A stretch of DNA of 64,000 nt from Somniosus microcephalus. Lineage: Eukaryota. The notes below the pieces were generated by a model. It saw nothing but the letters and a program-made list of their open reading frames with translations, was not told the DNA's origin and searched no databases. Below are positions 3,001 through 61,268 of this stretch, piece after piece. The DNA is taken from the NCBI GenBank assembly GCA_052327205.1, contig CM126202.1:80104001-80168000 (forward strand), given 5' to 3'. The position numbers and the translations under genes are program-made. How positions within the stretch are numbered: position 1 is the first letter of the stretch; the number at the start of each line of letters is the position of its first letter.

Positions 3001-6000
3001 GGATCAACAATCAGAGAGAGCGGGCAATGGACAACAATCAGAGAGAGCGGGTTATGGAACAACAATCAGAGAGAGCGGGTAATAGAGCTACAATTAGAGA
3101 TAGCAGGCAAGGGAAAAACAATCAGAGAGAGCATGCAACGGAACAACAATCAGCGACATGGGCCACAGAGCAAAAATCAGAGAGAGCGGGCAATTAAGGA
3201 ACAAAAACCATAGGGAGCGGGCAACAGAACAACAATCAGGGAGAGTGGGCAATGGAAAAACAATCAGTGATAGTGGGCAACGGAACAACAATCAGAGAGC
3301 AGGCAATGGAACAACAATCAGTGAGAGTGGGCAATGGAAAAACAATCAGGTACAGCGGGCAACGGAACAATAATCAGGTACAGCGGGCAACGGAGCAACA
3401 ATCAGAGAGAGCGGGCAATTGAGGAACAAAAACCAGAGGGAGCGTGCAATGAATCAACAATCACGGAGAGTGGGCAACGGAACAACAATCAGAGAGAGTG
3501 GCAATGCAGCAACAGAGAAAGCGGGCAAAGGAACAACAATCAGAGGGAGCGGGCAATGGAACAACAATCAGAGAGAGCAGGCAATGGAACAACAATCAGA
3601 GAGAGCAGGCAATGGAACAACAATCAGGTGCAGCGGGCAATTGAGGAACAAAAACCAGAGGGAGCATGCAATGAATCAACAACCAGGGACAGCGGGCAAA
3701 AGAGCAACAATCAGAGACAGCGGGCAATTGAAGAACAAAAACCAGAGAGAGCGGGCAATGCATCAATAAGCAGAGAGAAAGGGCAATGCAGCAACAATCA
3801 GAGCGAGCAGACATCAGACCAACAAACAAAGAGAGCGGGCAATGGAGCAACAATCATACAGAGCAGGCAATGGAGCAACACAAAAAACCGGCAATGGAAC
3901 AACAATCACAGAGCGGGCAATGGAGCAACAGAGAAAGCGGGCAATGGAACAACAATCAGATACAGCGGGCAATGGAGCAACAATCAGAGAGAGCGAGCAA
4001 TTTAGGAACAAAAATCAGAGGGAGCGGGCAATGGAAATACAATCAGAGAGCGGGTAATGGAACAACTATCAGAGAGAGTGGGCAATGGAACAACAATCAG
4101 AGAGAGTGGGCAATGGAACAACAATCAGAGAGAGCAGGCTATTGAACAACAATCAGAGAGAGCGGGCAATCGAACAACAATCAGAGAGAGCGGGCAATGG
4201 AACGACAATCAGGGAGAGTGGGCAATGGAAATACAATCAGAGAGAGCGGGCAATGGAACAACAATCAGAGAGCGCGGGCAATGGAACGACAATCAGAGAG
4301 AGCGGGCAATGGAACAACAATCAGAGAGAGCGGGCAATGGAACAACAATCAGAGAGAGCGGGCAATGGAACAACAATCGGAGAGAGCAGGCAATGGAACA
4401 ACAATCAGAGAGTGTGGGCAATTGAGGAACAAAAACCAGAGGGAGCGTGCAATGGGTCAACAATCAGAGAGAGTGGGCAATGCAGCAACAGAGAAAGCGG
4501 GCAAAGGACAACAGTCAGAGAGCGGGTAATGGAGCTACAATCAGAGAGAGCGGGCAATGGAACAACAATCAGAGAGAGTGGGCAATGGAAAATCAATCAG
4601 TGAGTACGGGCAACGGAACAACAATCAGGTACAGCAGGCAATGGAGCAACATTCAGAGAGAGCCGGCTATTGAGCAACAAAAACCAGAGGGAGCGTGCAA
4701 TGAATCAACAATCAGGGAGAGTGGGCAATGGGGGATCATAAGCCAGAGGGAGCGGGCAAAGGAACAATAATCAGGGAGAGTGGACAACGGAACAACAATC
4801 AGGAACAGCGGGCAACGCAACAACAATCAGAGAGAGCGGGCAATTGAGGAACAAAAACCAGAGGGATCGGGCAACGGAACAAACAGGGAGAGTGGGCAAT
4901 GGGGGATCATAAGCCAGAGGGAGCGGGCATAGGAACAATAATCAGGGAGAGCAGGCACCGGAACAACAATCAGGGACAGCGGGCAACGGAGCAATAATCA
5001 GAGAGAGTGGGCAATTGAAGAAAAGAAACCAGAGGGAGCGTGCAATGGAGCAACAATCAGAGAGCACGGGCAATGGAACAACAATCAGAGAGAGCGGGAA
5101 AAGCAATGATAATAAGAGAGAGCGGGAAATGGAACAACTGACAGAGAGAGTGATCAACGGAACAACAATCAGAGAGAGCGGGCAATGGAACAGCAATCAG
5201 AGAGAGCGGGTAATGGAGCTGTAATCAGAGACAGTGAGCTACTGAACAAAATCAGGGGTAGTGGTCAATGGAACAACAATCCGAGATAGCGAGGAATGTA
5301 ATAAAAATCAGAGCGGTGGGCAATTGAGGAACAAATACCAGAGGGAGCGGGCAATGGAAAAACAATTAGGGACAGCGGGCAACAGAGCAACAATCAGAGA
5401 CAGCAGGCAATTCAGGAACAAAAATCAGAGAGAGCAGGCAATGCAACCAAAGTCAGAGAGAGCAGGCAACAGAACAACAATCAGAGAGAGCCAGCAATGG
5501 ACCTACATTCAGAGAGAGCAGGCAATGGAACAACAATCACAGAGCAGGCAATGGAGCAACAGAGAAAGCGGGCAATGGAACAACAAACAGAGAGAGTGGG
5601 CAACAGATCAACAATCAGAGAGCGCGGGCAATGAAGCAACAAAAGCCAGAAGGAGCGAGCAGCGGAACAACAATCAGGGAGAGTGGGCAATGGATCAACA
5701 ATCAGAGAGGGCAGGCAACGGAACAACAATCAGAGAGAGCATGCAATGGAACAACAATCAGGGACAGCGGGCAAAGGAGCAACAATCAGAGAGAGCGATC
5801 AATGGAGGAACAAAAACCAGAGGGAGCGGGCAACAGAACAAACAGGGAGAGTGGGCAATGGATCAATAATCAGGGAGAGCAGGCAATGGTACAACAATCA
5901 GAGAGAGCGGGTTATGGAACAACAAGCAGAAAGAGCGGGTAATAGAGCTACAATTAGAGATAGCAGGCAAGGGAAAAACAATCAGAGAGAGCATGCAACG

Positions 6001-9000
6001 GAACAACAATCAGCGACATGAGCCACGGAGCAAAAATCAGAGAGAGCGGGCAATTAAGGCACAAAAACCATAGGGAGCGGGCAACAGAACAACAATCAGG
6101 GAGAGTGGGCAATGGAAAAACAATCAGTGATAGCGGGCAAAGGAACAACAGTCAGAGAGAGTGGGCAATGGAACAACAATCAGAGAGAGTGGGCAATGGA
6201 ACAATAATCAGAGAGATCGGGCAACGGTTCAAAAACCAAAGAGAGCGGGCAAAGGAACAACAGTCAGAGAGAGTGGGCAAAGGAACAACAATCAGAGCGA
6301 GCGAGCAATGGAAAAACAATCAGAGAGAGTGGGCAATGGAGCAATAATCAGAGAGAGCAGGCAATGGAACAACAGTCAGAGATGCCGGCATTGGAGCAAT
6401 AATCAGAGAGAGCAGGCAATGGAACAACAGTGGGCAATGGAACAGCAATCAGGGGTAGCGGTCAATGGAACAACAATCCGAGATAGCGAGGAATGGAACA
6501 GCAATCAGAGAGCGGGCAGCAGCGCAACAATCAGAGAGAGCGGGTAATGGAATAAAAATCAGAGCGTGTGGACAATTGAGGAACAAAAACCAGAGGGAGC
6601 GGGCAATGGATCAACAATCAGAAAGCATGGGCAACAGAACAATAATCAGAGAGAGCCGGCAATGGAACAACAATCAGAGAGAGCAGGGAATGGAACAACA
6701 GTCAGTGAGAGCGGGCAATGGAACAACAATCAGAGAGAGCGGGCAATGGAACAACAATCAGAGAGAGCGGGCAGCAGAACAACAATCAGAGAGAGCAGAC
6801 AACGGAACAACAATCGCAGAGAGCGGGCAATGGAAAAACAATCAGAGAGAGCGCGCGATGGAACAACAATCAGAGAGAGCGGGCAGTGGAACAATAATCA
6901 GTGAGAGCAGGCAACGGAACAACAAACAAGGAGAGCGGGCAATGGAGCAACAATCATACAGAGCGGGCAATGGAGCAACAGAAAAAGCAGGCAATGGAAC
7001 AACAATCACAGAGCGAGCAGCGGCGCAGCAATCAGAGAGAGCGGGCAATGGAACAACAATCAGTGAGAGTGGGCAATGGAACGATAATCGGGGAGAGCGG
7101 GCAATGGAACAACAATCAGAGAGAGCGGGCAATGGAGCAATAATCAGAGAGAGCAGGCAATGGAACAACAATCAGAGATAGCGGGCAATGCAACAACAAT
7201 CACAGAGCGGGCAATGGAGCAACAAAGAAAGCGGGCAATGGAACAACAAACAGAGCGAGTGGGCAACGGAACAACAATCAGGGAGAGCGGGCAACAGAGC
7301 AACAATCAGAGACAGCGGGCAATTGAAGAACAAAAACCAGAGAGAGCGGGCAACGCATCAATAAGCAGAGAGAACGGGGAATGCAGCAACAATCAGAGCG
7401 AGCGGGCAACAGACCAACAAACAAAGAGAGCGGGCAATGGAGCAACAATCATACAGAGCAGGCAATGGAGCAACAGAAAAAGCAGGCAATGGAACAACAA
7501 TCACAGAGCGGGCAACGGAGCAACAGAGAAAGCGGGCAATGGAACAACAAACAGAGAGAGTGGGCAACGGAACAACAATCAGAGAGCGCGGGCAATGGAA
7601 CAACAATCAGGGAGAGTGGGCAATGGAAATACAATCAGAGAGAGCAGGCAATGCACCAACAGAGAAAGCGGGCAATGGAACAACAAACAGAGGGAGCGGG
7701 CAACGGATCAACAATCAGAGAGCGGGTAATGGAACAACAATCAGTGAGAGTGGGCAATGGAACGATAATCGGGGAGAGCGGGCAATGGAACAACAATCAG
7801 AGAGAGCGGGCAATGCACCAACAGAGAAGGGGGGAATGGACAACAATCAGAGAGCGCGGGTAATGGACCTACATTCAGAGAGAGTGGGCTATGGAAATAC
7901 AATCAGAGAGCGGGTAATGGAACAACTATCAGAGAGCGGGCAGCGGCGCAGCAATCAGTGAGAGCGGGCAATGGAACAACAATCAGAGAGCACGGGCAAT
8001 GGAGCAACAATCAGATAGAGCGGGCAATGGAGGAACAAAAACTAGAGGGAGCGGGCAACGGAACAAACAGGCAGAGTGGGCAATGGATCAACAATCAGGG
8101 AGAGCGGGCAATGGTACAACAATCAGAGACAGCGGGGAATGGAGCAATAATCAGAGTGAGCGGGCAATTGAGCAACAATCAGGGAGAGTGGGGAACGGAG
8201 CAACAATCAGAGAGAGTGGGCAATGGATCAACAATCAGAGAGAGCATGCAATGGAACAACAATCAGGGACAGCGGGCAAAGGAGCAACAATCAGAGAGAG
8301 CGGGCAATTGAGGAACAAAAACCAGAGAGAGCGGGCAATGGAGGAACAAAAGCCAGAGGGAGTGGGCAATGGAACAACAGTCAGTGAGAGCAGGCAATGC
8401 CACCAAAGTCAGAGAGAGCAGGCAACAGAACAACAATCAGTGAGAGCAGGCAATGGAGCAATAATCAGAGAGCGCGGGCAATGGAACTACAGAGAAAGCG
8501 GGCAATGGAACAACAGTCAGAGGGATCAGGCAATGGAACAACAATCAGAGAGCGCGGGCAATGGAACTACAGAGAAAGCGGGCAATGGAACAACAGTCAG
8601 AGAGAGCCGGCAACTGAACAACAATCAGAGAGCGCAGGCAATGGAACAACAATCAGAGAGAGCCGGCAACTGAACAACAATCAGAGGGAGCAGGCAATGG
8701 AACAACAATCAGAGAGCACGGGCAATGGAACTACAGAGAAAGCGGGCAATGGAACAACAGTCAGAGAGAGCGGGCAATGGTGCAACAATCAGAGAGAGCT
8801 GGCAACTGAACAACAGTCAGAGAGAGCGGGCAATGGTGCAACAATCAGAGAGAGCGGGCAATGGTGCAACAATCAGAGAGAGCGGGCAATGGAACAACAA
8901 TCAGAGAGAGCGGGCAATGGAACAACAATCAGAGAGAGCGGGCAATGGTGCAACAATCAGAGAGAGTGGGCAATGGAACAACAATCAGAGAGAGCGGGCA

Positions 9001-9200
9001 ATGGTGCAACAATCAGAGAGAGCTGGCAACTGAACAACAATCAGAGAGAGCGGGCAATGGTGCAACAATCAGAGAGAGCGGGCAATGGAGCAACAATCAG
9101 AGAGAGCGGGCAATGGAGCAACAATCAGAGAGTGCAGGCAACGGAACAACAATCAGAGAGAGCGGGCAACGGAACAACAATCAGAGAAATGGCAATAGAA
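1..9200. repeat. Complex satellite, ~28-bp unit GGGCAATGGAACAACAATCAGAGAGAGC, with higher-order blocks
   Basis: Unit is visible continuously from base 1 to ~9200. It is purine-rich on +, and all long ORFs here are repeat translations (MEQQSERAGNGTTIRESGQWNNNQRERA). Confidence 0.97.
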
Positions 9201-11671: not shown

Positions 11672-12722
11672 ACACTTGAGCACAAAAATCCAGGCTGACA
11701 CTCAAATGCAATATTGAGGGAGTGCTGCACTGTCAGAGGTGCCGTTTTTGGGATGATGCGTTAAACCAAGGCCCTGTCTGTCCTCTCAGGTGAATGTAAA
11801 AGATCCCATGGCACTATTTCGAAAAAGAGCTGGGGAGTTACCCCCGGTGTCCTGGCCAATATTTATCCCTCAATCAACATCATTAAAACAGATGGGCCTA
11901 GAAATTGGGTTTTGGCGCAGCAACGGCTTTAGCGCCGGAAGTTAGTGCCGGAGCTAAGTCGCGCTGGTCGGGCCAAAAATTCACTACTTCTGCGCCCAAA
12001 CGGCTGCCGGCGCTGCTGAAAGCTGTTAGCGCCTGAAAACTGGCGCTATGCGCTGAATTTCGGCGCTATTCCGGCGCTGCGGCGCCCGCTGCGGTGCGGC
12101 AGGTTCGGAAAGTGCAGGCCTCCTCCTTCCCTTAAGGAGGACCTGCCTGCACCCGGCCGCGGCCCGCGATAATCTTATTAAAAATGAGCCCGGCACCTCG
12201 GACAAGTGCCGGGCTTGCTTCTGTTCCGAGGGGGGGGGGGGAAGTCCGGGGAGGGAGCTGCGGCCAGGCGGGCGGCGGGAAAGCGGCCGGCCGCCGCGGG
12301 GCCTTTAATGCGCCGGCGCAAACTTGTGCAAGGCACCTCTGCCAGAACGTTGCTTGCGGCTGCCACGGGCGAGGCGGCCGCAAGTCAATTTCCCAGTTCG
12401 GGCGGGTTACCATGGCAACCGGGACGCTGCGCACACCGATGACGTCATCGGTGCCGGCGCAGCGCTACCGGTCTACCGCGGCGGAAGGGCCCCAGGCAAT
12501 TTAGGCGCCGGCGCCAATTGCAGCGCTAGGCCCTCTAGCGCCGCAAAATCGGCGCTAAGGGCACTGAATTTCTAGGCCATGATCTGGTCATTAACACATT
12601 GCTGTTTGTCTGTCGCATTCCCTACATTACAACAGTGACTGCACTTCAAAAAAGTACTTAATTGTATGTAAAGCACTTTGGGACGTCCTAAGGTCATGAA
12701 AGGTGCTATATACATGCAAGTT
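11672..12722 (+). mobile_element. Deu-domain SINE (SacSINE1/AmnSINE1-like) split by a MITE
   Basis: Deu core GAGGGAGTGCTGCACTGTCAGAGGTGCCG...AAAGATCCCATGGCACTATTTCG at 11716-11821. It resumes at 12579 (ATCTGGTCATT...) and ends in an L2-like tail GGTGCTATATACATGCAAG. Family name recalled from consensus, not searched. Confidence 0.8.
11895..12578. mobile_element. GC-rich non-autonomous DNA transposon (MITE) copy 1
   Basis: TIRs GGCCTAGAAATT...AATTTCTAGGCC with a 3-bp direct repeat ATG on both sides. 684 bp, interrupting a SINE. Confidence 0.88.
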
Positions 12723-12753
12723 CATTCCTTTCCTTTTCCTCATGAAATTCCAA

Positions 12754-13441
12754 GGCCTAGAAATTCAGTGGCCTGCGCCACCAGTTTGCGCCCAAAGAGG
12801 GCTTTTGCGCCAGTCTGCAAACTTCAGGCGAAATTCAGCAGGGCGCTAATGGCGGCGTTAGGCTGTAGCGCTGCGCCGCCACCGATGACGTCATCGGTGT
12901 GCGCAGCGCCCCGTTTCCGCGAAGAACGCCATATTAAGTCGCGCCCGCCTCTTCAGCGCCGGCCGCAAACAGCGACCGGTACACAGGGCCTACCTGTGGC
13001 GGTAGTGGCGGTAATTAAAGTGGAGGTGCGGCCGGCCGCTTTTTCGGCGGCCGCCTGCCCGCACCTCCTTCCCCGGCCTCCTCCACCCTCCCCCCCGCGG
13101 CATTGCCGGCTGCTTTCCGGGAGCCCGGCACTTCTCCGTTCTGCCGGGCTCTTTTGCCGGCACTCGCGATCGGGGCTCCGGCTGCTGCAGGCACCTCCCC
13201 CTTAAGAGAGGGAGGAAGGCCTGCAGTACCGCAGCCTGCCGCTCCGCTGCGGGTGGCGCTGCGGCCACTAGCGCGCCGATAATCAGTTTCAGCGCCCAAG
13301 CGGGGCGCCGAAACCCCTGTTTAGCGGCCGCCTTCCACTTGGTGCGCTGACACTGAATATCCCGCTTGCGCAAGTGGATCCGCGCGCAGCGGTAATTCCG
13401 GCGCCAGGCGAGCTGGGCGCCCCATAATGAATTTCTAGGCC
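12754..13441. mobile_element. GC-rich MITE copy 2, inverted relative to copy 1
   Basis: Same TIRs, 3-bp direct repeat CAA, 688 bp. Shares the internal palindrome and its flanks with copy 1 in reverse orientation. Confidence 0.88.
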
Positions 13442-16239: not shown

Positions 16240-17225
16240 GGTTGGAAATTGGTTGGGAGGTAGGAGACAGTGCGGATAAAGGGTAGGTACTCTGACTGGC
16301 AGGATTTGGCAAGTGGTGATCCCCAGGGATCTGTTCTGGGGCCTCAACTTTTCACCATATTTATTAATGACTTGCATGAAGGAATAGAGAGTCGTATATC
16401 CAAGCTTGCAGATGGCACTAAGTTAGGAGGCATAGTAAGTAGTGTAGATGGGAGCAGGAAGTTGCAAAGGGACATAGACAGATTAAGTGAGTGGGCAAAA
16501 CTATGACAGATGGCGTTTAATGATGGCAAGTGTGAGGTCATCCACTTTGGACCTAAGAAAGATAAATCGGAATATTTTCTAAATGGTGAAAAATTAGGAC
16601 CTGCAGAGGAGCAAAGAGATTTGGGATTCCAAGTACACAAATCATTTAAAGATAGCAGACAGGTACAAAAGGCAATCAAACAGGCTAATGGAATGTTGGC
16701 CTTTATCTCTAGGGGGCTGGATTACAAAGGGGTAGAAGTTATGCTTCAGTTGTGCAGAGCCTGGATCAGACCTCATCTAGAGTTCTGTGTTCAGTTTTGG
16801 GCACCGTGCCTCAGGAAGGATATATTGGCCTTGGACGGGGTGCAGCGCAGATTCACCAGAATGATACCGGGGCTTAAAGGCTTGTATTCCCTTGAGTATA
16901 TTGAGGTGTTTAAAATGTTAAAAGGAATCAATAGGGTAGATAGAGAGACATTATTTCCTCTGATGAGGGAATCAAGAAAAATTAGAGCAAGACCATTGAG
17001 GAGGGAAATCTAAAAGCACTTTTTCACACAAAAAATAGCAGAAATCCAGAATTCTCTGCCCAAAAAACCTTTGGATGCTAGGGAAATTGGAGCTTATAAG
17101 ACTGAGCTCACTAATATTTGTTGGGTAAGGGTTGTCAAGGGATATGGAGTTGAGGTACATATCAGCCATGATCTAATTGAATGAAAGAGCGGGCTCAAGG
17201 GGCTAAATGGCCTACTCCAGTCCCT
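16240..17225 (+). mobile_element. CR1 LINE 3' fragment (degenerate RT)
   Basis: PQGSVLGPQLFTIFINDL...KLADGTKLGG, KCEVIHFG and RPHLEFCVQFWAP motifs with an in-frame stop. CR1 3' UTR ATCAGCCATGATCTAATTGAATG. Confidence 0.92.
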
Positions 17226-17595: not shown

Positions 17596-20500
17596 TTCTC
17601 ACTGCTCATCAACCTGAGTCCATTAAAACTTCCAACCAGCAAGCTAGTTATTCTATTTCAACCTACGGTTTTCTCCCCACCCCCACCCAGCCCCCACCCC
17701 CACCTGAAGGTGCTGACTCTCTCCTCCCCTGAAGGTGCTGAATCCCTCCCCCCTCCCCGAAGGTGCTGACTCTCTCCCCCTCCCCTGAAGGTGCTGGCTT
17801 TCTCCCCCCTCCCCAAAGGTGCTGACTCTCTCCCCCTCCCCTGAAGGTGCTGACTCTCTCTCTCCTCCCCTGAAGGTGCTGACTCTCTCCGCCCCTGAAG
17901 GTGCTGACTCCCTCCCCCCTCCCCGAAGGTGCTGACTCTCTCCCCCTCCCCTGAAGGTGCTGACTCTCTCTCTCCTCCCCTGAAGGTGCTGACTCTCTCC
18001 CCCTCCCCTGAAGGTGCTGACTCTCTCTCTCCTCCCCTGAAGGTGCTGACTCTCTCCGCCCCTGAAGGTGCTGACTCCCTCCCCCCTCCCTGTAGGTGCT
18101 GACTCTCTCCCCCTCCCCTGAAGGTGCTGACTCTCTCCCCCTCCCCTGAAGGTGCTGACTCTCTCCCCCTCCCCTGAAGGTGCTGACTCTCTCCCCCTCC
18201 CCTGAAGGTGCTGACTCTACCCCCTCCCCTGAAGGTGCTGACTCTCTCCCCCTCCCCTGAAGGTGCTGACTCTCTCCCCCTCCCCTGAAGTTGCTGACTC
18301 TACCCCCTCCCCTGAAGGTGCTGACTCTCTCCCCCTCCCCTGAAGGTGCTGACTCTCTCACCCTCCCCTGAAGGTGCTGACTCTACCCCCTCCCCTGAAG
18401 GTGCTGACTCTCTCCCCGTCTCCTGAAGGTGCTGACTCTACCCCCCTCTCCTGAAGGTGCTGACTCTCTCCCCCTCCCCTGAAGGTGCTGACTCTCTCCC
18501 CCTCCCCTGAAGTTGCTGACTCTACCCCGTCCCCTGAAGGTGCTGACTCTCTCCCCCTCCCCTGAAGGTGCTGACTCTCCCTCCTCCCCTGAAGGTGCTG
18601 ACTCTACCCCCTCCCCTGAAGGTGCTGACTCTCTCCCCGTCTCCTGAAGGTGCTGACTCTCTCCCCCTCTCCTGAAGGTGCTGACTCTCTCCCCCTCCCC
18701 TGAAGGTGCTGACTCTCTCTCCCCTCCCCTGAAGGTGCTGACTCTCTCTCTCCTCCCCTGAAGGTGCTAACTCTACCCCCTCCCCTGAAGGTGCTGACTC
18801 TCTCCCCGTCTCCTGAAGGTGCTGACTCTCTCCCCCTCCCCTGAAGGTGCTGACTCTACCCCCCTCCCCTGAAGGTGCTGACTCGCTCCCCCTCTCCTGA
18901 AGGTGCTGACTCTCTCCCCCTCCCCTGAAGGTGCTGACTCTCTCCCTCCCAGCACCTTCAGCAGAGGGCAAAAGAGTCAGCACCTTCAGGGAAGAAGAGA
19001 GTCAGCACCTTCAGGGGAGGGGAGCGAGTCAGCACCTTCAGGGGAGGAGAGAGAGAGTCAGCACCTTCAGGGGAGGGGAGAGTGTCAGCACCTTCAGGGG
19101 AGGGGGAGAGAGTCAGCACCTTCAGGGGAGGGGAGAGTGTCAGCACCTTCAGGGGAGGGGGAGAGAGTCAGCACCTTCAGGGGAGGAGAGAGACAGTCAG
19201 CACCTTCAGGGGAGGAGAGAGACAGTCAGCACCTTCAGGGGAGGAGAGAGAGAGAGTCAGCACCTTCAGGAGAGGGGGAGAGAGTCAACACCTTCAGGGG
19301 AGGAGAGAGACAGTCAGCACCTTCAGGGGAGGAGAGAGAGTCAGCACCTTCAGGGGAGGAGAGAGACAGTCAGCACCTTCAGGGGAGGAGAGAGAGAGAG
19401 TCAGCACCTTCAGGGGAGGAGAGAGAGAGTCAGCACCTTCAGGGGAGGAGAGAGAGAGTCAGCACCTTCAGGGGAGGGGAGAGTGTCAGCACCTTCAGGG
19501 GAGGGGTAGAGAGTCAGCACCTTCAGGGGAGGGGGAGAGAGTCAGCACCTTCAGGGGAGGAGAGAGAGAGAGTCAGCACCTTCAGGGGAGGGGGAGAGAG
19601 TCAGCACCTTCAGGGGAGGAGAGAGAGAGTCAGCACCTTCAGGGGAGGAGAGAGAGAGTCAGCACCTTCAGGGGAGGGGAGAGTGTCAGCACCTTCAGGG
19701 GAGGGGGAGAGAGTCAGCACCTTCAGGGGAGGGGGAGAGAGTCAGCACCTTCAGGGGAGGAGAGAGTCAGCACCTTCAGGGGAGGAGAGAGAGAGTCAGC
19801 ACCTTCAGGGGAGGGGGAGTGTGTCAGCACCTTCAGGGGGGAGAGAGAGAGTCAGCACCTTTAGGAGAGGGGGAAAGAGTCAGCACCTTCAGGGGAGGGG
19901 GAGAAAGTCAGCACCTTCAGGGGAGGGGGAGAGAGTCAGCACCTTCAGGGGAGGAGAGAGAGAGTCAGCACCTTCAGGGGAGGGGGAGTGTGTCAGCACC
20001 TTCAGGGGAGGAGAGAGAGAGTCAGCACCTTCAGGGGAGGGGGAGAGAGTCAGCACCTTCAGGGGAGGGGAGAGAGTCAGCACCTTCAGGGGAGGAGAGA
20101 GAGTCAGCACCTTCAGGGGAGGGGAGAGAGTCAGCACCTTCAGGGGAGGGGGAGAAAGTCAGCACCTTCAGGGGAGGGGGAGAGAGTCAGCACCTTCAGG
20201 GGAGGAGAGAGAGTCAGCACCTTCAGGGGAGGGGGAGAGAGTCAGCACCTTCAGGGGAGGGGAGAGAGTCAGCACCTTCAGGGGAGGGGGAGAGAGTCAG
20301 CACCTTCAGGGGAGGAGCGACTGAGTCAGCACCTTCAGGAGAGGGGGAGAGAGTCAGCACCTTCAGGGGAGGGGAGAGAGTCAGCACCTTCAGGAGAGGG
20401 GGAGAGAGTCAGCACCTTCAGGGGAGGGGGAGAGAGTCAGCACCTTCAGGGGAGGGGGAGAGAGTCAGCACCTTCAGGGGAGGGGAGAGAGTCAGCACCT

Positions 20501-21082
20501 TCAGGGGAGGGGGAGAAAGTCAGCACCTTCAGGAGAGGGGGAGAGAGACAGCACCTTCAGGGGAGGGGGAGAGAGTCAGCACCTTCAGGGGAGGAGAGAG
20601 AGAGTCAGCACCTTCAGGGGAGGAGCGACTGAGTCAGCACCTTCAGGAGAGGGGGAGAGAGTCAACAACTTCAGGGGAGGAGAGAGAGAGACAGCACCTT
20701 CAGGGAAGGGGGAGAGAGTCAGCACCTTCAGGGGAGGAAAGAGAGAGAGTCAGCACCTTCAGGGGAGGAGAGAGAGAGAGTCAGCACCTTCAGGGGAGGA
20801 GAGAGAGAGTCAGCACCTTCAGGGGAGGGGGAGAGAGTCAGCACCTTCAGGGGAGGGGAGAGAGTCAGCACCTTCAGCGGGGGAGAGAGAGTCAGCACCT
20901 TCAGGGGAGGGGGAGAAAGTCAGCACCTTCAGGAGAGGGGGAGAGAGACAGCACCTTTAGGGAAGGAGAGAGAAAATGAGTACCTTCAGGAGAGTGGGTG
21001 GGGGGAAAACCAGAGGTTGAAATAGAATAACTAGCTTGCTGGTTGGAAGTTTTAATGGACTCAGGTTGATGAGCAGTGAGAA
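17596..21082. repeat. ~3.5-kb foldback: 69-bp perfect inverted arms enclosing two opposed 28-bp minisatellite arrays
   Basis: 17596-17664 is the exact reverse complement of 21014-21082. Unit CCCCTGAAGGTGCTGACTCTCTCCCCCT runs to ~18949, then flips to its reverse complement up to ~20990. Confidence 0.93.
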
Positions 21083-23962: not shown

Positions 23963-24094
23963 CTTCATCACGTTTCCTCTTGTTATTCTCAGCACTGGAC
24001 GGTGTGATCCCCAGAATGCCACTGATGGAGTAGGAAGATCCTGCAGGGTCCGTGGCGGCAGAAGGAACTTGAGTCACTGGCACGGTGCTCGGTG
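23963..24094 (-). CDS. PAX5: PAX5 exon 5 (octapeptide, basic NKRKR motif)
   Basis: ccccacag|CACCG...GAAG|gtaagt, 132 bp, phase 1/1. Encodes [45 protein letters not shown]; YSISGILG is the PAX5-type octapeptide. Confidence 0.96.
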
Positions 24095-25069: not shown

Positions 25070-25722
25070 GGAAGCATACATATATTAGTCTACTGAACTC
25101 ATTAGAAGTGTACAGATATTTGGTCCATTGAACCCATTAGAAGCCTATGGAATAAAAACAGAAAATGCTGGAAATACTCAGCCGGTCAGGCAGCATCTGT
25201 GGAGCGAGAAACAGAGTTAACGTTTCAGGTCGATGACCTTGCGTCCAAACCTGCTGAGTATTTCCAACATTTTCTGTTTTTATTTCAGATTTCCAGCATC
25301 CGCAATATTTTGCTTTTGTAAAAGCCTATGGATATTGTTCCATTGAACCCATTAGAAGCCTATGGATATTGTTCCATTGAACCCATTAGAAGCCTATGGA
25401 TATTGTTCCATTGAACCCATTAGAAGCCTATGGATATTGTTCAATTGAACCCATTAGAAGCCTATGGATATTGGTCCATTGAACCCATTAGAAGCCTATG
25501 GATATTGGTCCATTGAACCCATTAGAAGCCTATGGATATTGTTCCATTGAACCCATTAGAAGCCTATGGATATTGTTCAATTGAACCCATTAGAAGCCTA
25601 TGGATATTGTTCAATTGAACCCATTAGAAGCCTATGGATATTGTTCAATTGAACCCATTAGAAGCCTATGGATATTGGTCCATTGAACCCAGTAGCAGCC
25701 TATGCATATTTGTCCACTGAAC
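25070..25722. repeat. 34-bp tandem repeat AAGCCTATGGATATTGTTCCATTGAACCCATTAG, interrupted at 25152-25321
   Basis: Period of 34 (25322, 25356, ...), about 11 copies right of the insertion and 2-3 degenerate copies to the left. Confidence 0.92.
25152..25321. mobile_element. Penelope-like element remnant with inverted arms
   Basis: AAAACAGAAAATGCTGGAAATACTCAG...GAAACAGAGTTAACGTTTCAGGTCGATGACC followed by inverted CTGCTGAGTATTTCCAACATTTTCTG. AAGCCTATGGA flanks both sides. Confidence 0.72.
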
Positions 25723-27067: not shown

Positions 27068-27875
27068 GAACAACAACAACAGCTTGTAGTAAAACGTCCC
27101 ACAGGAGTGTTATAAAACAAAATTGGAGACTGAGCTACATAAGGAGGAATGAGGGCAGATGACCAAAAGCTTGGTCAGTGAGGTAGGTTTTAAGGAGTGT
27201 CTTAAAGGAGGAAAGAGAAGTAGAGAGGCGGAGAGGTTTAGTGAGGGAATTCCAGAGCTTAGGTCCTTGGCAGCTGAAGGCACGGCCACCAATGGTTGAG
27301 CGATTAAAATCAGGAATGTTCAAGAGACCAGAATTAGTGGAGCACAGATATCTCGGATGGTTGTGGGGCTGGAGGAGATTACAGAGATAGGGAGGGGCGA
27401 GGCCATGGAGAGATTTGAAAACAAGGATGAGAATTTTGAAATCGAGGTGTTGCTTAACCGGCAGCCAATGTAGGTCAGCGAGCACAGAGGTGATGGGTGA
27501 ACGGGACTCGGCTTAGGACACAGGAAGCCGAGTTTTGGATGACCTCAAGTTTACGTAGGGAGGCCAGCCAGGAGTGCATTGGAATAGTCAGGTTTAGAGG
27601 TAATAAAGGCATAGATGAGGGTTTCAGCAGCAGATGAGCTGAGGTAGGGGCAGAGATGGGCAATGTTACAGAGGTAGAAATAGGCAGTCTTAGTTATGGT
27701 GCGGATATGTGGTCAGAAGCTCATTTCAGGGTCAAATATGACACCAAGGTTGCAAACAGTCTGGTTCAGCCTCAGACCGATGCTAGGGAGAGGGATGGAG
27801 TCGGTGGCTAGGGGATGGAGTTTGTGGTGGGGACTGAAGTCAATGGCTTTGGTTGGAGGAAATTTCTGCTCATCC
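27068..27875 (-). mobile_element. L2-clade LINE 3' fragment
   Basis: Minus ORFs NLGVIFDPEMSF and LADLHWLPVKQHLDFKILILVFKSLHGLAPPYL...GGRAFSCQGPKLWNSL, with an (aac)n tail. Confidence 0.92.
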
Positions 27876-28353: not shown

Positions 28354-28418
28354 CTATAGTATGGGATGAGACCGGCGATTGCTGGTTTGGAGGCTGCTGC
28401 ACCTTTGTTCGAATAATC
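28354..28418 (-). CDS. PAX5: PAX5 exon 4
   Basis: ttttattcag|GATTATTCGA...ACTATAG|gtgaga, 65 bp. Encodes (R)IIRTKVQQPPNQQSPVSSHTI. Confidence 0.96.
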
Positions 28419-31152: not shown

Positions 31153-31356
<204 letters not shown>

Positions 31357-39341: not shown

Positions 39342-39507
39342 CTGCCCAGAATTTTGCTGACGCAGCCGTGGCTCACCCTGAGCTGCCTGGAGATGTCACA
39401 GGGTCTCACCCCTTGGTGGGCCAGTTCCACGATCCGCTGCCGGACAACATCAGGAAGAGGGCGGCCATTCACAAAGACCCCTCCGAGCTGATTCACCCCG
39501 CCATGCC
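39342..39507 (-). CDS. PAX5: PAX5 exon 2 (paired domain N-terminal part)
   Basis: gtatacag|GGCATGGC...CTGGGCAG|gtaaga, 166 bp. Encodes [55 protein letters not shown]. Confidence 0.98.
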
Positions 39508-42003
39508 CTGTATACAACATACAAAACAGAGAGAGAGAAAAGAAACACTGCAGCCACACAGTAGAATTCCAACACTCAGTCTGCATCTCCCAGCTAGATT
39601 TATCGGTAACATACAGGGCCAGCAGAAATATGGGGGGGGCGGGGAGAGGAGGACAGAACCCCCTCCTCTGCACTAAGAGACTTTCCACAGTCATGGGGGC
39701 GGTGGTGGGGTGGGGGGACAACAGGGTGGGGATATACTGCAGCAGACCGGGTAGTGAAGAGAAAACCAGGAGGATGAACACACCGCAATGTGTTAAAGAA
39801 GGGAACATTTTTCAAACATGGGCTCCTGCATCAGCATGTCCAGGGACACAGCAGCTTCCTGGAATACCCCTCATAGCAACTGGACCTCAGGACAGGGACA
39901 GGGTTATACCCCAGTGCATTGTAAAAATTTATATAATATAGATCAACACTAGCTCCAGTAGCCAGACTTAAAAATATATATGAATGATGATTACTGCTGT
40001 GAGCTAGAGACACACATGAGTCGTTCACTGAAAGCGAAAGTGATCCACTGAATTCGGAACAGAAAACGAACCCCTTTCGGTGAAACTTCAGCTTCCTGTA
40101 AAAAAAAGTAGTCGCTCGGAGATTTGTGGACGGATTTCAGTCGCGCTCACAACCTTCTGGGACCAAGACGTGTTCCTTTTGAGTAATCGGCTGATGAATT
40201 GCGAGCGGCTCGATTCTCACACCCAATGTGACACGATTTTTAGATGTTTACTAGGCTGTCCCAGACAGCTCGTGGGTTATCTTGCTAAAACAAAATAGTA
40301 TTTTTTTCTCCAAATGTGGTAGTAATTGTCTACAAGTCTTTCAAGAAAACGAATGGTGAAGTGAATGATAAATCCTAACTCAAAACGATAATTAGATTTG
40401 TTTTTGTAAAAATCATTCCAAATTGAAATCAAAGCAATGGGATCGATATTCAGATCTATATTCAGAAATAAAATACAGCGCCTCAACATGACAAGTGTTA
40501 ATAAATGCAGATCAGTTACAATATTGTAACATTGCAAAAGCTGGGAGTGTTTGAGATAAATCGTCTCATTTAAATCTCCAGGGTTTTTTATTAGTCTGTG
40601 TCACAGCCGGAGGGAAGGAAAGTTATAACGGGAACGGATTGATACCTGCAGCAGAGGGGTAATCGGCGCCGGCAGATACTTAGCCTCTTTCGTTGCTACT
40701 TTTACTGGTTTTAGTAATAAGTGAAATTAACGTTTTGCTAATGAGCCAAAAATGATGCATTACTTCCGTTTTTTTCAGCGAGTTGCTATCTCATTTCAGT
40801 CTCTGGAGCAGAACATTACTAACTAGATTAGTTCATTTTTTAAAAATACCATCAGATTTCACGCCGGGTCCGTTTAAATTCCCTTTCATTTCCTAGTTTG
40901 ATTCGGAGATTTTGGTCCTTTTTTTAAAAAAAATAAAGCCGCGATTATTTACTATTAAAACGGGCCCTAATGAGTATACGTACAATTCAAACCCGGAACG
41001 GAGAAATACGGAATAGGATTATAAAAATATACATGACTTTGATAATAAGAACTGTTTTTAAAAATCAATAATGTGTGTTTCGATTTGAAAGTTTGTGCGC
41101 GCGCGTTTACTCCACATCACTGTGTTGTGACAATTTTAAATCGATACATATTTTTGGAGACGGAAGGGGAAACTCCAGCCTGATTTACACTCAATAAACC
41201 TGGTCAACGAGGTGCGATTCCTAAAGTGTGTTTAGTCCCCACTACAATATGATTAGTTCGAGTTGATAAAGCATCTGTTTACAAGCTGTAGGTATAATAA
41301 CTCTTAACACACCGTGATAGGATGTGTCATTTCACATAACACCGACCAAATGGACAAGTCCCAGCCAACTCTGTCAACCAAAACAAACGTGCTGGAGATT
41401 TCTGCGCGGTCCAAGACCATCAGAGCGGACTTTCACTGCTTTACATCAGCTTAATCCTCGTCGTTTACTCACAAAAGTAAATACAATCGGAGAAAGCAAA
41501 ATCAAACAGTTACACGTCAACCTTATTTAATCCCCTAGTTAATGCTCTTTTGCAATTTACAGGCAACTAGATTATTTTTTTGTTTTGTTCACAAATTTTA
41601 ATGATGCATCTATTAATGCAACTGACTTTTACTAACAAACGATGCTCGACACAGAAAGCAACAATATCGCATCCCATTTCGTAGTAAAAGTATTAGTAAT
41701 TAAGATGATATTGCAACTATGTCCGCGAATGTTGTCGTTTTCTGTTTAATTGTGGGAATTAAGAAATCGTTTAATTAACTCGTTTTTAATTCGGGAAAAT
41801 CGGGGATGATATTAAAATTAGCAGTGCACGTGTGACTCGGCCGTGCCTTTCTGCAAAAAGGGCTCCCTTTCAAAGACTTCGCGTTGCTCCAGCTCTAGGG
41901 CCATCTGATCATCAGCTTGTGGAACCGGGTGCTCCAGCACTCCTTACACACTCTCACTCACTAGGAACCGCCAGACAAGCCAGGGAAGGAGCTGCCTACT
42001 TAC

Positions 42004-42046
42004 TATGCATTGCTGCAAACGGGTCGTGCTTACAGTGGATTTCCAT
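42004..42046 (-). CDS. PAX5: PAX5 exon 1B coding part
   Basis: ATGGAAATCCACTGTAAGCACGACCCGTTTGCAGCAATGCATA|gtaagt encodes MEIHCKHDPFAAMH(R). Phase 1 matches exon 2. Confidence 0.96.
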
Positions 42047-42499
42047 GAAAAGGCGCAGCCGGTCTTCAACTCGGAGAAAACCTCGATTTCCTGGTCTGGA
42101 TTTAACCCCTTCACCTATACTCCCAAAAACAAAAGAGGCGTGAGCAGCACCCCACGCAAACCCAGAAGAAGATCTCGATGTCAGCCACTAATTGCAGGTC
42201 CTGCGTCTTTGTGATCCTCAAGGTTTCGGACGGATTGTGTAAGGAACGTAAAAGTTAAGTTTGTCAAATGCAATGCATTGCCCCCAAAAAACGGATCCAA
42301 TTACTACCCAGTGACAGCAGTGAATTTTAACTTCGAAATCGTTCACACCCGGAAAAAAATCCTTTTATGAATTCCAGCTTCTTTTTTTGGCGTTTTCCTG
42401 TGCAATTTGTCCGCTGTGTGTGTGAAGGCGGGTTCCCGTTTCCCCGGAGTGCGCTGGCCCCCTGCTCTGTATTCAGTCGCGCTCACTCTCCTCCATAGT

Positions 42500-42865
42500 G
42501 TTTAAATGTGGCTGAGCCCGCGGTGATTCGGCGCTGATTCGCCCGAAGCTCAGCCCTGCGGGGACGGCGCACAGCTCCGGCCGCTGTCAATCACACCACC
42601 ACCAGCCAATCAAGGAACAGTCGCCATTCTCGATGACCAATCGCGCCCAGCAGCCGAGCGCGCTGACCAATCCCCGGGCGAGCTACTGACTCATTCACCA
42701 ATGACACCCCCGTCTAAGAGAATTGACCAATCGCACGGACCTCATTTTTAACATTCACCAATGATGTGCAGGTCTTAGAGATGCAAGAGGCGGTCTCTTT
42801 GCTAATTGGTTATCTCATACTGCACCCTGATTGGCTCACACTGCTAAACCCTAGGGGCGGGCCTC
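42500..42865 (-). promoter_or_regulatory. PAX5 exon 1B TATA-less promoter (CCAAT array, GC box, PBX/PREP decamer)
   Basis: CCAAT at 42606, 42637, 42667, 42698, 42727, 42758; ATTGG at 42805, 42830; GGGGCGGG ~42854; CTGTCAATCA 42584-42593. CpG-rich and ~0.5-0.8 kb upstream of the 1B ATG. Confidence 0.75.
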
Positions 42866-43785: not shown

Positions 43786-44393
43786 NNNNNNNNNNNNNNN
43801 NNNNNNNNNNNNNNNNNNNNNNNNNNNNNNNNNNNNNNNNNNNNNNNNNNNNNNNNNNNNNNNNNNNNNNNNNNNNNNNNNNNNNNNNNNNNNNNNNNNN
43901 NNNNNNNNNNNNNNNNNNNNNNNNNNNNNNNNNNNNNNNNNNNNNNNNNNNNNNNNNNNNNNNNNNNNNNNNNNNNNNNNNNNNNNNNNNNNNNNNNNNN
44001 NNNNNNNNNNNNNNNNNNNNNNNNNNNNNNNNNNNNNNNNNNNNNNNNNNNNNNNNNNNNNNNNNNNNNNNNNNNNNNNNNNNNNNNNNNNNNNNNNNNN
44101 NNNNNNNNNNNNNNNNNNNNNNNNNNNNNNNNNNNNNNNNNNNNNNNNNNNNNNNNNNNNNNNNNNNNNNNNNNNNNNNNNNNNNNNNNNNNNNNNNNNN
44201 NNNNNNNNNNNNNNNNNNNNNNNNNNNNNNNNNNNNNNNNNNNNNNNNNNNNNNNNNNNNNNNNNNNNNNNNNNNNNNNNNNNNNNNNNNNNNNNNNNNN
44301 NNNNNNNNNNNNNNNNNNNNNNNNNNNNNNNNNNNNNNNNNNNNNNNNNNNNNNNNNNNNNNNNNNNNNNNNNNNNNNNNNNNNNNNNNNNNN
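43786..44393. other. Assembly gap (608 N)
   Basis: Run of N. Both flanks share ACCTGTATTTCCACA in CA-rich context, suggesting an unresolved tandem repeat. Confidence 0.99.
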
Positions 44394-53700: not shown

Positions 53701-54398
53701 CCAGTCTCACCCTCTCGCACATGAAAGCGGAGGTTTGCGGAGTAACTGCAGTTTTTTGCCGGTTTTTCCCCCCCCAGCGCTTTCAGCTGAAGACCTGATT
53801 TCTACAGTTCCCCGTTGTACAGTGTGACAGCCGTCACCTTGTAAATATTAAATGGAAACCAAACGACTTTTGAACTTAAACGTGAAATAATTGTACTTTT
53901 TAAATTATTTAACCGATTGAACCTCAGAAGTGACCATTGGTCTCTCTTGTGAATCAGTGATCGCCAGCGGCGTTTTAGTGCAATCGGAATTCGCTACAAA
54001 GCATGAAAAAGTTACCACGTTCAGTTCTGAGGGGGAAACTACACTGAAATCAACCAGATGCCTTCTACCAACCTGTTCATTTCAGGCAGGGCAAGCACCG
54101 AAATTCACGCACGGAGATACATTTCCGCTTTGTTTGTTTACGCTGAATATTCATTTTAAGTTTTCAAAGTGCATTAAATTTGCTTTAAATATTCCCCAAG
54201 ACTTGAACGGCCATTAAACCCCACTTAGCTATTTAAAATACCTTGCTTTTTAAAACAAAGTGTCTGAACTCTTAATAGATTTTTATACTACTGAATACTG
54301 TTTAATTCTACAAATAAACACGAGGCTGTCACCAATGCGGCCGCTTCATGCTTTCTGATTACTTGTATTTTTTTTCACAGAAAGGTTTTAAAACCTAC

Positions 54399-54438
54399 CT
54401 GATCGGACACTCCTGAGCGCGCTGCCGTTTGTTTCCAT
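54399..54438 (-). CDS. PAX5: PAX5 exon 1A-like coding part
   Basis: ATGGAAACAAACGGCAGCGCGCTCAGGAGTGTCCGATCAG|gtaggt encodes METNGSALRSVRS(G), phase 1, in frame with exon 2. Its end resembles mammalian ...RTSRT(G)|gtagg, and the upstream AAAAAGGGAAACTTTTC resembles the mammalian 1A 5' UTR as recalled. Confidence 0.75.
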
Positions 54439-54488
54439 ACTAGCTCTGGGATTTCGAGTCCTTTGTGAAAAGATTGGAAGAAAAGTTT

Positions 54489-54524
54489 CCCTTTTTCGGT
54501 GTGTGTGTGTGTGTGTGTGTGTGT
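54489..54524. repeat. (GT)n microsatellite, probably in the exon 1A 5' UTR
   Basis: Pure GT run about 50 bp upstream of the 1A ATG. Confidence 0.9.
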
Positions 54525-57500
54525 TTTGTCGGCTCCGGATAATTTGACTCTTCCGCTACCCCGTCGCGTCTTTGGTGCTGCCCATTGATCCGAAACTAAA
54601 CGTTTTAGGTGGAGAAAAGGCTCTGAACAAACCGTGAAATGATTAAGGAACTAAAAGAGCTCGCTACATGTGAGATCATGTCCTGTTCGCTTTAAAAAAA
54701 ATCGCAAAGTCCCTCGACACAGCGAAAAGAAAGTAAAACTCTCACATCTGCCGGACAAATCACTCCCACCTATGGCTGTTGGTAACTTTGGTGTTGTCTC
54801 TCTCGCCTCCTATCCTCCTGATTCCAGCCTGCGAATCTGGCTGTTTACAATGCCTGGCATCTGCAAACACTTGCACCATAGGCTCAGTGTGAGGATAGAG
54901 ACTCTGAAACACAGCATCACACGCCGATCAAAGCATTACTCTCTAACATTCTGAATAATTAAAGCCTTTCTCATCGCTTCACTCTCTGTCCAACCCTCCC
55001 TCCTCAATTTGCCTCAAGAAATGTACCAAATAGGTTTACCTACAGCCCAGGGACAGTAATGGAAAACAAGTCAGCCCCCTCCCCCGAAACGAGGAAGTTC
55101 GGTGCACTTTTTGCTAGCTTTCGGTTTATTCCTTAAACATAGCGCGAAGGTTGTTTACAAATTGTACCGAATTGATTCTCCTTTCATGGGAGGGAGAGCT
55201 ATCTTAACAACTGAATGCTCGCCCCCCCCTTCTCACACAAATAGTGACATATGCAAACCGGATACCTTTTTTAATATAAAAAAAACATTTCTTGGTATGG
55301 TCACATTCTATAAGAAACTGCTGACTGATTACTTTACCTACAGATAGAAAGAGAAATAATTCGCGGAGCGGGGGGACTCAGCCGTACTTCTGACTTCAAC
55401 CCTTTCTGAAGTGGTGTCAATATTGGGGGGATGTGAGAGTGTTGTAGTAGTTGCTCGAACAGGTAATTGCACTTGTTCCACAGACAGTTCGGAAGTACAG
55501 CTCCCGCCGCACTTGACCGTTAACCGGTGACCGCCGTACAACTTTAAGGAAGTTTTAAATACGAATTCATTCGAGTCAATGGGACGGTCTCACTACAACT
55601 CAAATACCAACAACAGTCCGTGCACTTTTACACATCCCCGTCTCTCTGTTATATAACAAGCCTGGATTTATTTGGGTATGTTTACATCGCCCTGCAAAAG
55701 CACAAATGCCAGTGATTTCAGTTAAATATAAACTGAAGTTACTGAAACCTGGATCACATTGACAGCGCTCGCTGCTTTCCTGTGTTCGGTATATTTTACA
55801 TATTTAACCCCATAACACAACGCAAAATCAAACTCACTATATATCAACAATACTCAGATAAAGCGCCTTAGCTGGGTATAACCTCATGGGCAAGCTCAAA
55901 GCACGTTTTCTAGGATAAATCCACCAACGTTCTTCGATTCATATTGCCATGACAGTTTATCTTTACATTGTTTACTTTATGTTAAAAAGGGCCAAACAGC
56001 TCGCCAGAAATGTTTATGAACAAAAACGGTATTTTTTAAGTATACAAACCCAAAGGACTGTAGTTCAGAACATGGACTATCCGTTTTGCAAAGATTTGCG
56101 GGTGGGCTCTATCATTGATTCAACGAGTCTGTGAAGTGCAATCGGTTTACAGGTAAAATGCAAGGCATCCGCTCTGAAATAGCCTAGATCAAGAGTAGCC
56201 TAAAGAAAGGACCGTGTCGCCTATATTTCGGCGTTTTAATATATTATTATTGTAGCCTAAAATACTTCCGTTGATGCGTCTTAATTGTGAATTTAAATTT
56301 TTGTATTCATCAATAAACTGAAACAGGTGGGTTTAGACAGGATCGTCGTTTAAATCCGGATCACCTAAAAAAACATCTTTTTGTTTAATTTAAAGAAAAT
56401 TATTACACTCTTCACCGAATAATCCAAAATAATTATTAGGCAATTGTCACAGAATCACAGTGTTTGAACGTTTATGAAACAATAACCGTAAAATATATGT
56501 AATAGGCCAAACCAAACACAGATTCTGATCACTGGTTGTTTTATAACAACCTGATCAGGAAATGCTTACAAATGAGAAGTACGGCTAAACTTTATTAAAC
56601 TTACGCTGTTAAAAGTTGAAAATAATCCTTCCTAAAAGATCGGAAAGGAGTTACATGCCCTTTATTTTGGGGTCATTCACGTTTACACAATGCTATTAAT
56701 ATTATAAAAACTAGCATCATTGCTGAAGACAGCCGGGAGTTTACTTCCTGACAAGTGAAGGGACGATTTAATGAAGGGTAAAAATAAAGTTGATGTACAA
56801 GTTGTATTGGAACCTTCGGAGCTAACTCCGAACACAAGAAAGAAATAATTGTGCCTGCTGCCATTTTATTTGTGAATCAATTACAAATTGTTTCTCCACA
56901 GTTTGACATTCACACAGAGTACAGATCCTGCTTCCCAACGGCTTCTAGATTTTTGGTTCTGCCCAAGATCACAACATATGGAAATTCACTCGATCAAGTG
57001 AACACATCTCTTTTTTAAAACACAATTCATATGAATATAGTTAATATTAGGGCTTCAAAAAGTTACTCAATTCCAAGATCCTCACAGTTAATTTGTATTT
57101 TGATATTCAATGTGCGAGTGAAATGTCTCCCGCTATAAACTGTGATCACCTGTTTTAAACAAGTATTCAAAAATATATAATTGCTTTGTAATTATCTGGA
57201 ATATGATTAGTAGTGAGTTGTGCATCATTAGCCCACACCACATTAAAATGTATTGTGTTTACTTTCCTCACTGATATCAGCCCACAGTAATTACATGAAC
57301 CCACTGCCCTCGCTGCTCCTTTTTATTCATTAACAACAGGCAGTTGTATGAAGCGGGACAAAAGGGTTAAGACACTTTACTGTGCCCAGAACTAATCTTT
57401 GCAATCATTATTTATCAGTGTATCAATGACACTGGAGTAAATCACGCGTTGTCCCTGTCTCACATACCAGGTGTTCCGCTATCGATATAAAAAACAAACT

Positions 57501-60073: not shown

Positions 60074-61268
60074 AACATAAGAACATAAGAAATAGGAGCA
60101 GGAGTAGGCCATTTGGCCCTTTGAGCGTGCTCTGCCATTCAATAAGATCATGGCTGATCTTCTACCTCATCTCCCCATATCCCTTGATTCCCTTAATATT
60201 CAAAAATCTATTGATCTCTGACTTGAATATACTCAACAACTGAGCCTCCACAGCCCTCTGGGATAGAGAATTCCAAAGATTCACCACCCTCTGAGTGAAG
60301 AAACTTCTCCTAATCTCAGTCCTAAATGGCCGACCCCTTATTCTGAGACTGGGGGAAACATCCTCCCTGCATCTACCCTGTCAAGCCCTCTATGAATTTT
60401 GTACGTTTCAATGAGATCACCTCTCATTCTTCTAAACTCTAGAGAATATCGGCTTAGTCTTCTCAATCTCTCCTCATAGGACAATCCCCCCATACCAGGA
60501 ACCAGTCTGGTGAACCTTCATTGCACTCCCTCTATGGCAAGTATATCCTTCCTTAGGTAAGGAGACCAAAACTGTACACAATACTTCAGGTGTGGTCTCA
60601 CCATGATGCTATATAATTGCAGTAAGACATCTTTACTCTCATACTCAAATCCTCTTGTAATAAAGGCCAACATACCATTTGCTTTCCTAATTGCTTGCTG
60701 TACCTGCATGTTAACTTTCAGTGATTCATGTACAAGGACATCCAGGTCCCTCTGAACACCAACATTTCCCAATCTCTCACCATTTAAAAAATACTCTGCT
60801 TTTCTATTTTTCCTACCAAAGTGGATAACTTCACACTTCTACACATTATATTGAATTTTACCATGTTCTTGCCCACTCACTTAGCCTGTCTGTATCCCCT
60901 TGAAGCCTCCTTACATCCTCCTCACAACTTACATTCCCACCCAGCTTTGTATCATCAGCAAACTTGGGTATATTACATTTGGTCCCCTCATCCAAATCAT
61001 TGATGTAGATTGTAAATAGCTGAGGCCCAAGCACTGATCCTTGCGATACCCCACTAGTTACAGCCTGCCAACCCGAAAATGACCCGTTTATTCCTACTCT
61101 CTGTTTTCTGTCCGTTAACCAATCCTCAATCCATGCTAGTATATTACCCCCAATCCCATGAGACCTAATTTTGTTTAATAACCTCTTGTGTGGCACCTTA
61201 TCGAATGCCTTCTGAAAATGCAAATACACCACATCCACTGGTTCGTCCTTATCTATTCTGCTAGTTAC
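60074..61268 (-). mobile_element. CR1 LINE 3' fragment (RT domain)
   Basis: DVVYLHFQKAFDKVPHKRLL...GVSQGSVLGPQLFTIYINDLD...KFADDTKLGG and RPHLKYCVQFWSPYL, with an (aacataag)n tail at 60074. Confidence 0.95.

Follow-up and report, generated by a model that had tools for sequence, protein, structure and literature searches.

The PAX5 locus and its two first exons

The window, by which we mean the whole analysed stretch of 64,000 nucleotides, carries a Pax gene on its minus strand. Exon 2 (39342..39507) encodes the first half of the paired domain and is identical in 55/55 residues to Pax5 in PDB entry 1k78. The second half lies in exon 3 (31157..31354), which, like exon 4 (28354..28418), was assigned from its frame and borders, and exon 5 (23963..24094) contains the octapeptide region, is PAX5-specific and is closest to shark Pax5. 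These four exons were the only ones found in the window by tblastn, and all of their borders carry AG/GT. A query with exon 5 returned 13 proteins, all of them Pax5 or unnamed, with shark Pax5 as the best match (95%), and over the peptide of exons 4 and 5 the identity is 60–62/65 residues to sharks, 56–60/65 to rays and 58/65 to the chimaera. On these sequence matches the host gene is PAX5, not PAX2 or PAX8, of a shark, which agrees with the assignment to PAX5 of a cartilaginous fish made in the preliminary description.

Upstream of exon 2, the segment 54399..54438 (minus strand) is read, from its frame and peptide homology, as the coding portion of exon 1A of PAX5. Its ATG at 54438-54436 opens 13 codons encoding METNGSALRSVRS, followed by a single G at 54399 and then by the phase-1 splice donor GTAGGT (54393..54398, minus strand), each of these being read directly from the sequence. 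The acceptor of exon 2 (...TACAG| at 39507) receives this exon in frame, the G of exon 1A and the GG of exon 2 forming a glycine codon, and on reading from exon 1A into the paired domain the frame stays open through exons 2–5 with no stop. The 40-bp ATG-to-donor segment with a phase-1 GTAGGT that had been proposed earlier is real and in frame with exon 2, and its proposed position 12.4 kb upstream of exon 1B is borne out by the 12,395 nt measured between the donors of exon 1A and exon 1B (the latter at 42004), a distance that includes an assembly gap of 608 N (43786-44393) between the two exons. Among sequencing runs guessed to be RNA, which bear no tissue labels, 14 contain a share of 0.05–0.17 of the words of the interval 53900-55400 and three contain practically none, shares to which we give no weight as evidence.

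The 3′ part of exon 1B (42004..42114, minus strand) has its ATG at 42046 (MEIHCKHDPFAAMH/R) and its main donor after 42004, and encodes the peptide given for fish 1B in Table 1 of PMC6132355. An in-frame acceptor lies inside the leader of this exon at 42114 (minus strand), and exon 1A joined to the 111 nt from that acceptor reproduces the 51-residue start of the catshark models X4/X5 (P0018/P0027), residue 3 excepted. The stretch 42114-42047 (minus strand) forms an open frame of 22 codons that is identical in the catshark models fusing 1A with 1B and one residue off a Chiloscyllium model; it is to be read as a genuine third isoform or as a leader that has been conserved. Searching the region with residues 1–40 of the fused catshark model gave three candidates and no hit. 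An alternative donor after 42034 (minus strand) in exon 1B gives MEIHW and is found in models of Heterodontus, Mobula birostris and the catshark. The intron end at 39508-39520 (minus strand) reads MLYTG in frame, and the Heptranchias RefSeq model P0023 begins there, its first exon having probably been missed.

Upstream of exon 1B, six reverse CCAAT boxes (ATTGG) spaced by 29–31 nt occupy positions 42606..42762 (minus strand) and presumably mark the 1B promoter; four overlapping triplets are seen in this array against 0.03 expected. Arrays of ATTGG are typical of NF-Y promoters. The median ratio of observed to expected CpG is 0.76 at 41–57 kb, as against 0.36 and 0.29 in the flanks.

Conservation and age of exon 1A

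Among the matches listed, a 1A-type start is found in RefSeq models of 13 of the 18 chondrichthyan species seen. These comprise the sharks Chiloscyllium punctatum, Scyliorhinus canicula, S. torazame, Heterodontus, Stegostoma and Cetorhinus, the batoids Amblyraja, Hypanus, Pristis, Mobula birostris, Hemitrygon and Narcine, and the chimaera Callorhinchus. Among these matches, in which the main cluster is represented by 15 of its 32 members, Carcharodon, Hemiscyllium, Heptranchias, Leucoraja and Mobula hypostoma lacked a 1A model. The 1A-type models all begin at the 1A ATG and share 8–12 of the 13 residues with the window, in which the threonine at position 3 is a variant of its own, and in several species they stand beside 1B models. 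As examples of the same exon we cite XP_038660476.1 (Scyliorhinus canicula X3), XP_072445745.1 (Chiloscyllium punctatum X2) and XP_042192453.1 (Callorhinchus milii X1). All of this support consists of predicted RefSeq models, of which later ones may be seeded by earlier ones; they were made automatically and are named only as ‘isoform X’, with no exon 1A in the names shown. The shark exon 1A is a known exon that is already present, unnamed, in the automatic annotation of relatives. Conservation of the ATG in other chondrichthyans was a check named beforehand in the preliminary description, and both ATG and peptide are kept in sharks, rays and the chimaera. Exon 1A has 13 codons in sharks and rays and 15 in the chimaera and the bony vertebrates, the first two codons being those that are missing in the former. 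Since the chimaera has the mammalian length, parsimony suggests that two N-terminal codons were probably lost in sharks and rays.

The comparison with bony vertebrates relied on a profile of 39 distinct 1A peptides, anchored at the donor and trained without cartilaginous fishes; 40 sixteen-residue bony N-termini had been found, from which medaka P0103, apparently an intron read-through, was removed by hand. With this profile the 13-mer of the window scores 11.9 bits, the highest value among 3,587 GT-anchored phase-1 candidates (runner-up 8.5 bits), among 646 minus-strand candidates upstream of exon 2 (runner-up 3.5) and among the 69,089 six-frame 13-mers of the window, while 7/100,000 shuffles reached its score. 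Sixteen-residue N-termini ending in R-x-x-R-x-G occur in bichirs, sturgeon, paddlefish, eels, osteoglossomorphs, cyprinids, acanthomorphs, frogs, reptiles, birds and mammals. That of sturgeon and paddlefish reads MELEKNNPTHRTGRSG, and BAG66241.1 from Carassius langsdorfii, apparently a direct submission from the form of its accession, has a 1A-type start as well. In 16/16 aligned 1A proteins, which range from the chimaera to mammals, two positions of the 15-codon form (11 and 14) are always arginine. The matches listed, which did not include zebrafish or Fugu, held no 1A model for gar, coelacanth, axolotl or Xenopus tropicalis.

The human and mouse exon 1A (PAX5A, BSAP; MDLEKNYPTPRTSRT/G) is likewise a distal first coding exon with a phase-1 donor to exon 2, and its two invariant arginines, as well as an E and an N, are in register with the shark peptide. 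The identity between the human-type and the shark peptide is nevertheless 4/13, the shark exon is two codons shorter (13 versus 15), and the distance from 1A to 1B is 12.4 kb in the shark versus 7 kb in the mouse, differences that might be expected if the cartilaginous fishes had gained by convergence an upstream exon of their own that resembles 1A. Such a convergence is at odds with the 15-codon form of the chimaera and with the peptides of bichir and paddlefish, which bridge the sequences, and it is largely refuted by the profile ranks and by the nucleotide agreement with the start site of chicken 1A described below; we consider it highly improbable. The probability of a chance ATG-donor pair without function is smaller still, indeed negligible. 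The bare pattern is not rare, with 13 ATG-to-phase-1-GTRRG segments of ≤91 nt upstream of exon 2 (counting 1A and two forms of 1B), but the 1A peptide is kept in models of 13 species and tops all nulls, and chance is effectively excluded by this conservation; it is because of its homology that exon 1A stands above chance. We regard 54438-54399 as almost certainly the coding end of a PAX5 exon 1A that jawed vertebrates inherited from their common ancestor. The earlier reading of the segment as a divergent ortholog of exon 1A is upheld by its top rank with the bony-vertebrate profile and by the match of the chicken start-site primers upstream of it.

Exon 1A is shared by chimaera, elasmobranchs and bony vertebrates and is therefore no younger than the last ancestor common to the jawed vertebrates, and judging from the sequences compared, two alternative PAX5 first exons would have existed at least as early as that ancestor. 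The two-start layout that the preliminary description had placed at the base of jawed vertebrates agrees with the two first exons of the window and with the retention of 1A in sharks, rays, the chimaera and bony vertebrates. A later date has been published: according to the Discussion and Table 1 of PMC6132355, PAX5A ‘appears later, with mammals’, Xenopus, zebrafish and Fugu having yielded no hits. The 1A starts predicted for the chimaera, for sharks and rays, and for bichirs, sturgeons, teleosts and frogs contradict this dating, the three species of that table not being themselves among those in which 1A was seen. Among the best 150 representatives at 50% identity, 118 had readable paired-domain starts, and the seven high scorers were all PAX5-like; none of the ten representatives checked by name was a lamprey or hagfish.

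In the literature searched, which was mainly non-subscription, no description of a shark or fish exon 1A was found beyond the negative table of PMC6132355; the available portions of PMC4034164 and PMC12985389 contain nothing on exon 1A, and that of PMC4488758 concerns other PAX5 splicing events. Our claim is limited by the presence of the exon in automatic annotations and by the near interchangeability of the two proteins in the mouse. Older papers on the cloning of skate, Fugu and trout Pax5 may already describe a fish 1A, which would lower the novelty.

The presumed start-site block and leader of exon 1A

The match to the chicken is nucleotide evidence and is independent of the peptide evidence. 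The two ends of a block at 54590..54689 (minus strand) match, in the right order and orientation, the primers of the chicken Pax5 1A ‘TSS’ amplicon as given in PMC5737561 Table S1 and PMC4301804 Table S2. One primer matches in 20/22 positions at 54668-54689 and the other in 24/26 at 54590-54615, each match being unique in the window and found in 0/100 shuffles. The primers face each other over 100 bp from end to end, 152–251 nt upstream of the 1A ATG, and we interpret the interval as a conserved start-site and leader block of exon 1A. The other two of the four chicken oligos tested, a guide target lying 0.1 kb upstream of the TSS and a primer over the 1A ATG, were without a match at ≤3 mismatches. 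In the chicken 1A promoter, as presented for DT40 cells in the accessible parts of PMC4301804 and PMC5737561, the distance from TSS to ATG seems longer than in the shark. By eye, the chicken ‘+1.2k’ reverse primer (PMC4301804 Table S2) is the reverse complement of a 1A-type start, even though the text of that paper, so far as available, ties +1.2k to exon 1B. With the chicken 1A ATG primer labelled +1.2 kb from the TSS and the shark block lying 152–251 nt from the ATG, the structure of the leader differs between the two species.

An upstream ORF of 24 codons (54605..54679, minus strand), which we offer as a lead, has its ATG in one of the two conserved primer blocks and its TAA in the other. 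By eye, this ATG and TAA also lie within the chicken primers, and the two chicken differences inside the ORF fall on third codon positions, a hint that comes from two bases only. Among the matches listed, no title in the upstream-ORF literature concerned the leader of PAX5 itself. A second upstream ORF, of nine codons (54556..54585, minus strand), is in the frame of the main ATG and stops before it, and the presumed 1A leader also contains an (AC)13 microsatellite read by eye (54499..54524, minus strand). The motif GGAAACTTTTC (54480..54490, minus strand), which the preliminary description had singled out for alignment to tetrapod exon 1A, occurs once in the window, and 7/100 shuffles likewise yield one occurrence; it matched no tetrapod sequence in the Pax5 literature texts and supplements searched, and GGAAACTTTT was absent from the main text and supplements of the Pax5 papers searched. 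The better conserved block lies some 100–200 nt further upstream than GGAAACTTTTC.

A scan restricted to the strict consensus TATA[AT]A gave no match in 54399-55500, the shark TSS being unmapped. The EBF consensus TCCCNNGGGA had no match at ≤1 mismatch at 46.3–61.1 kb, the interval of 54.4–61.1 kb included, in a kind of scan that misses degenerate sites. The human 1A promoter is reported to contain a TATA box (PMC2504290, in part), and in the mouse an EBF1 site lies ~1.1 kb upstream of 1A according to the available part of PMC4301804; the latter is a mouse feature that does not define exon 1A, and the consensus scan did not find it in the shark. This lack of an EBF consensus and of a strict TATA box near the 1A promoter, along with the rescue of mouse B-cell development by both isoforms (PMC6132355, Discussion), would suit an exon 1A that is orthologous but that served a general or neural promoter in sharks and became restricted to lymphoid cells later. 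We think such a late restriction rather unlikely: the start-site block has its counterpart in the B-cell promoter studied in chicken DT40 cells, mammalian 1A is B-cell-restricted (PMC6132355, PMC9456430), and degenerate sites escape consensus scans. By analogy with mammals and chicken only, the shark 1A promoter would probably be lymphoid, with a B-cell bias.

Use and origin of the two starts

PAX5 fixes B-cell identity. The use of two promoters and two first exons is established in human and mouse (PMC6132355, PMC9456430, PMC2504290) and in chicken (PMC4301804, PMC5737561), and in mammals 1A is B-cell-restricted while 1B is used also in the CNS and in the testis (PMC6132355, PMC9456430), as far as the available sections of these papers go. 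In the nurse shark, B-cell clusters express Pax5, the isoforms not being distinguished in the part of PMC10529500 available. For the shark of the window, the chicken match suggests that transcription would start at an upstream promoter at ~54.6–54.7 kb; translation would begin at ATG 54438, and the transcript would be spliced in phase 1 to exon 2 past exon 1B, the frame being read from the sequence and the splicing suggested by the models of relatives. Exon 1B would be under its own promoter with the phased CCAAT array, of which the sequence is observed and the function presumed, and splicing from 1A to the acceptor at 42114 in the 1B leader may provide a third route. The 1A and 1B proteins differ in 14–15 N-terminal residues only, so that the main effect of the arrangement would be regulatory, with two promoters for one transcription factor; since both proteins rescue B cells in the mouse, the arrangement would mainly set the level of PAX5 by tissue.

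The type of exon may be older than B cells. According to this suggestion, a short MPH...RSG coding exon of the ancestral Pax2/5/8 gene was joined in phase 1 to the paired box; this exon would survive as the start of PAX8 and, in some Pax2 genes, as an alternative start, and would have been extended at its 5′ end in exon 1A of PAX5, the promoter being recruited to B cells later. An older origin of this kind is compatible with the identification of the shark exon as an ancestral 1A, and competes only with a dating by which the exon arose with B cells. The peptides in question are MPHNSIRSG (PAX8-type by sequence: P0286, P0318), MPHSLGRSG (Pax2a of Osmerus mordax, P0284) and MPHSGRSG (the hemichordate Glandiceps talaboti, P0293, P0404). 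Split by the intron as MPHNSIRS/G, MPHSLGRS/G and MPHSGRS/G, they are like 1A in being short, in standing directly before the paired domain and in ending in R-S-G. When scored with the 1A profile over positions −8 to −3, the MPH...RSG tails rank 1, 3, 4 and 8 of 91 distinct non-1A tails, and 0.04–1.3% of 4,771 nulls from the window reach their scores. SIRSG is common to ray 1A and PAX8, and the histidine of the paddlefish, sturgeon and eel 1A peptides is in register with MPH.

Several points weigh against this older origin. The putative homology was suggested post hoc and concerns 8–9 residues, which lack the M-D/E-x-E-K start of 1A, and the score comes mostly from Gly-Arg. All of the MPH...RSG peptides lack the first invariant arginine, the training set of the profile having been selected on the two arginines. 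The CAG|GT donor consensus tends to yield S/T/A-G as the last two residues, and arginine at −3 occurs in 14/91 tails, including those of unnamed distant proteins ending in SRSG. The support from Pax2 is one model only. The PAX8 start itself lies in the second exon, behind a non-coding first exon. A starfish model (P0410) ends in QMPHGSC within an MDLH-type start, and with MPH placed inside a 1B-like start the hemichordate peptide may likewise derive from a 1B-like exon. Given the shortness of the peptides, the missing first arginine and the starfish model, we treat the older origin as a tentative lead that is more doubtful than probable.

If this lead is followed to its end, the ‘B-cell’ exon would not be a vertebrate invention. 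We offer as speculation, and as improbable in its entirety, that a deuterostome Pax2/5/8 ancestor had two alternative coding starts (MPH...RSG and MD.HCK), that once the genome duplications had taken place PAX8 retained the former, PAX2 for the most part the latter and PAX5 the pair, and that in jawed vertebrates the old upstream promoter was rewired to serve B cells, the block of 100 bp conserved from shark to chicken and spanned by the 24-codon ORF being the core of the B-cell switch and a dosage control. What makes the locus of interest is the corrected published dating, the conserved start-site block and the choice between an exon that arose with B cells and one that existed long before them. 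Whether a dedicated lymphoid PAX5 promoter arose together with immunoglobulin-bearing B cells becomes a testable question, the 100-bp element shared from shark to chicken can be used in reporter tests, and 1A and 1B provide isoform-specific markers for the B cells of fishes.

Some features of the surrounding introns may be added. At ~12000-13400 in intron 5 lies a GC-rich stretch (58% in 12–14 kb) with two related segments sharing CCGATGACGTCATCGGT; it came into question as a further promoter, and has the appearance of an interspersed repeat. Introns 5 and 4 contain long tandem arrays, strongly skewed between the strands, at 1-9200, 17700-21000 and 25300-25700. Three decayed segments at ~16250-17000, 27130-27860 and 60200-61260 read, by eye from the ORF translations, like the reverse transcriptase of non-LTR retroelements.
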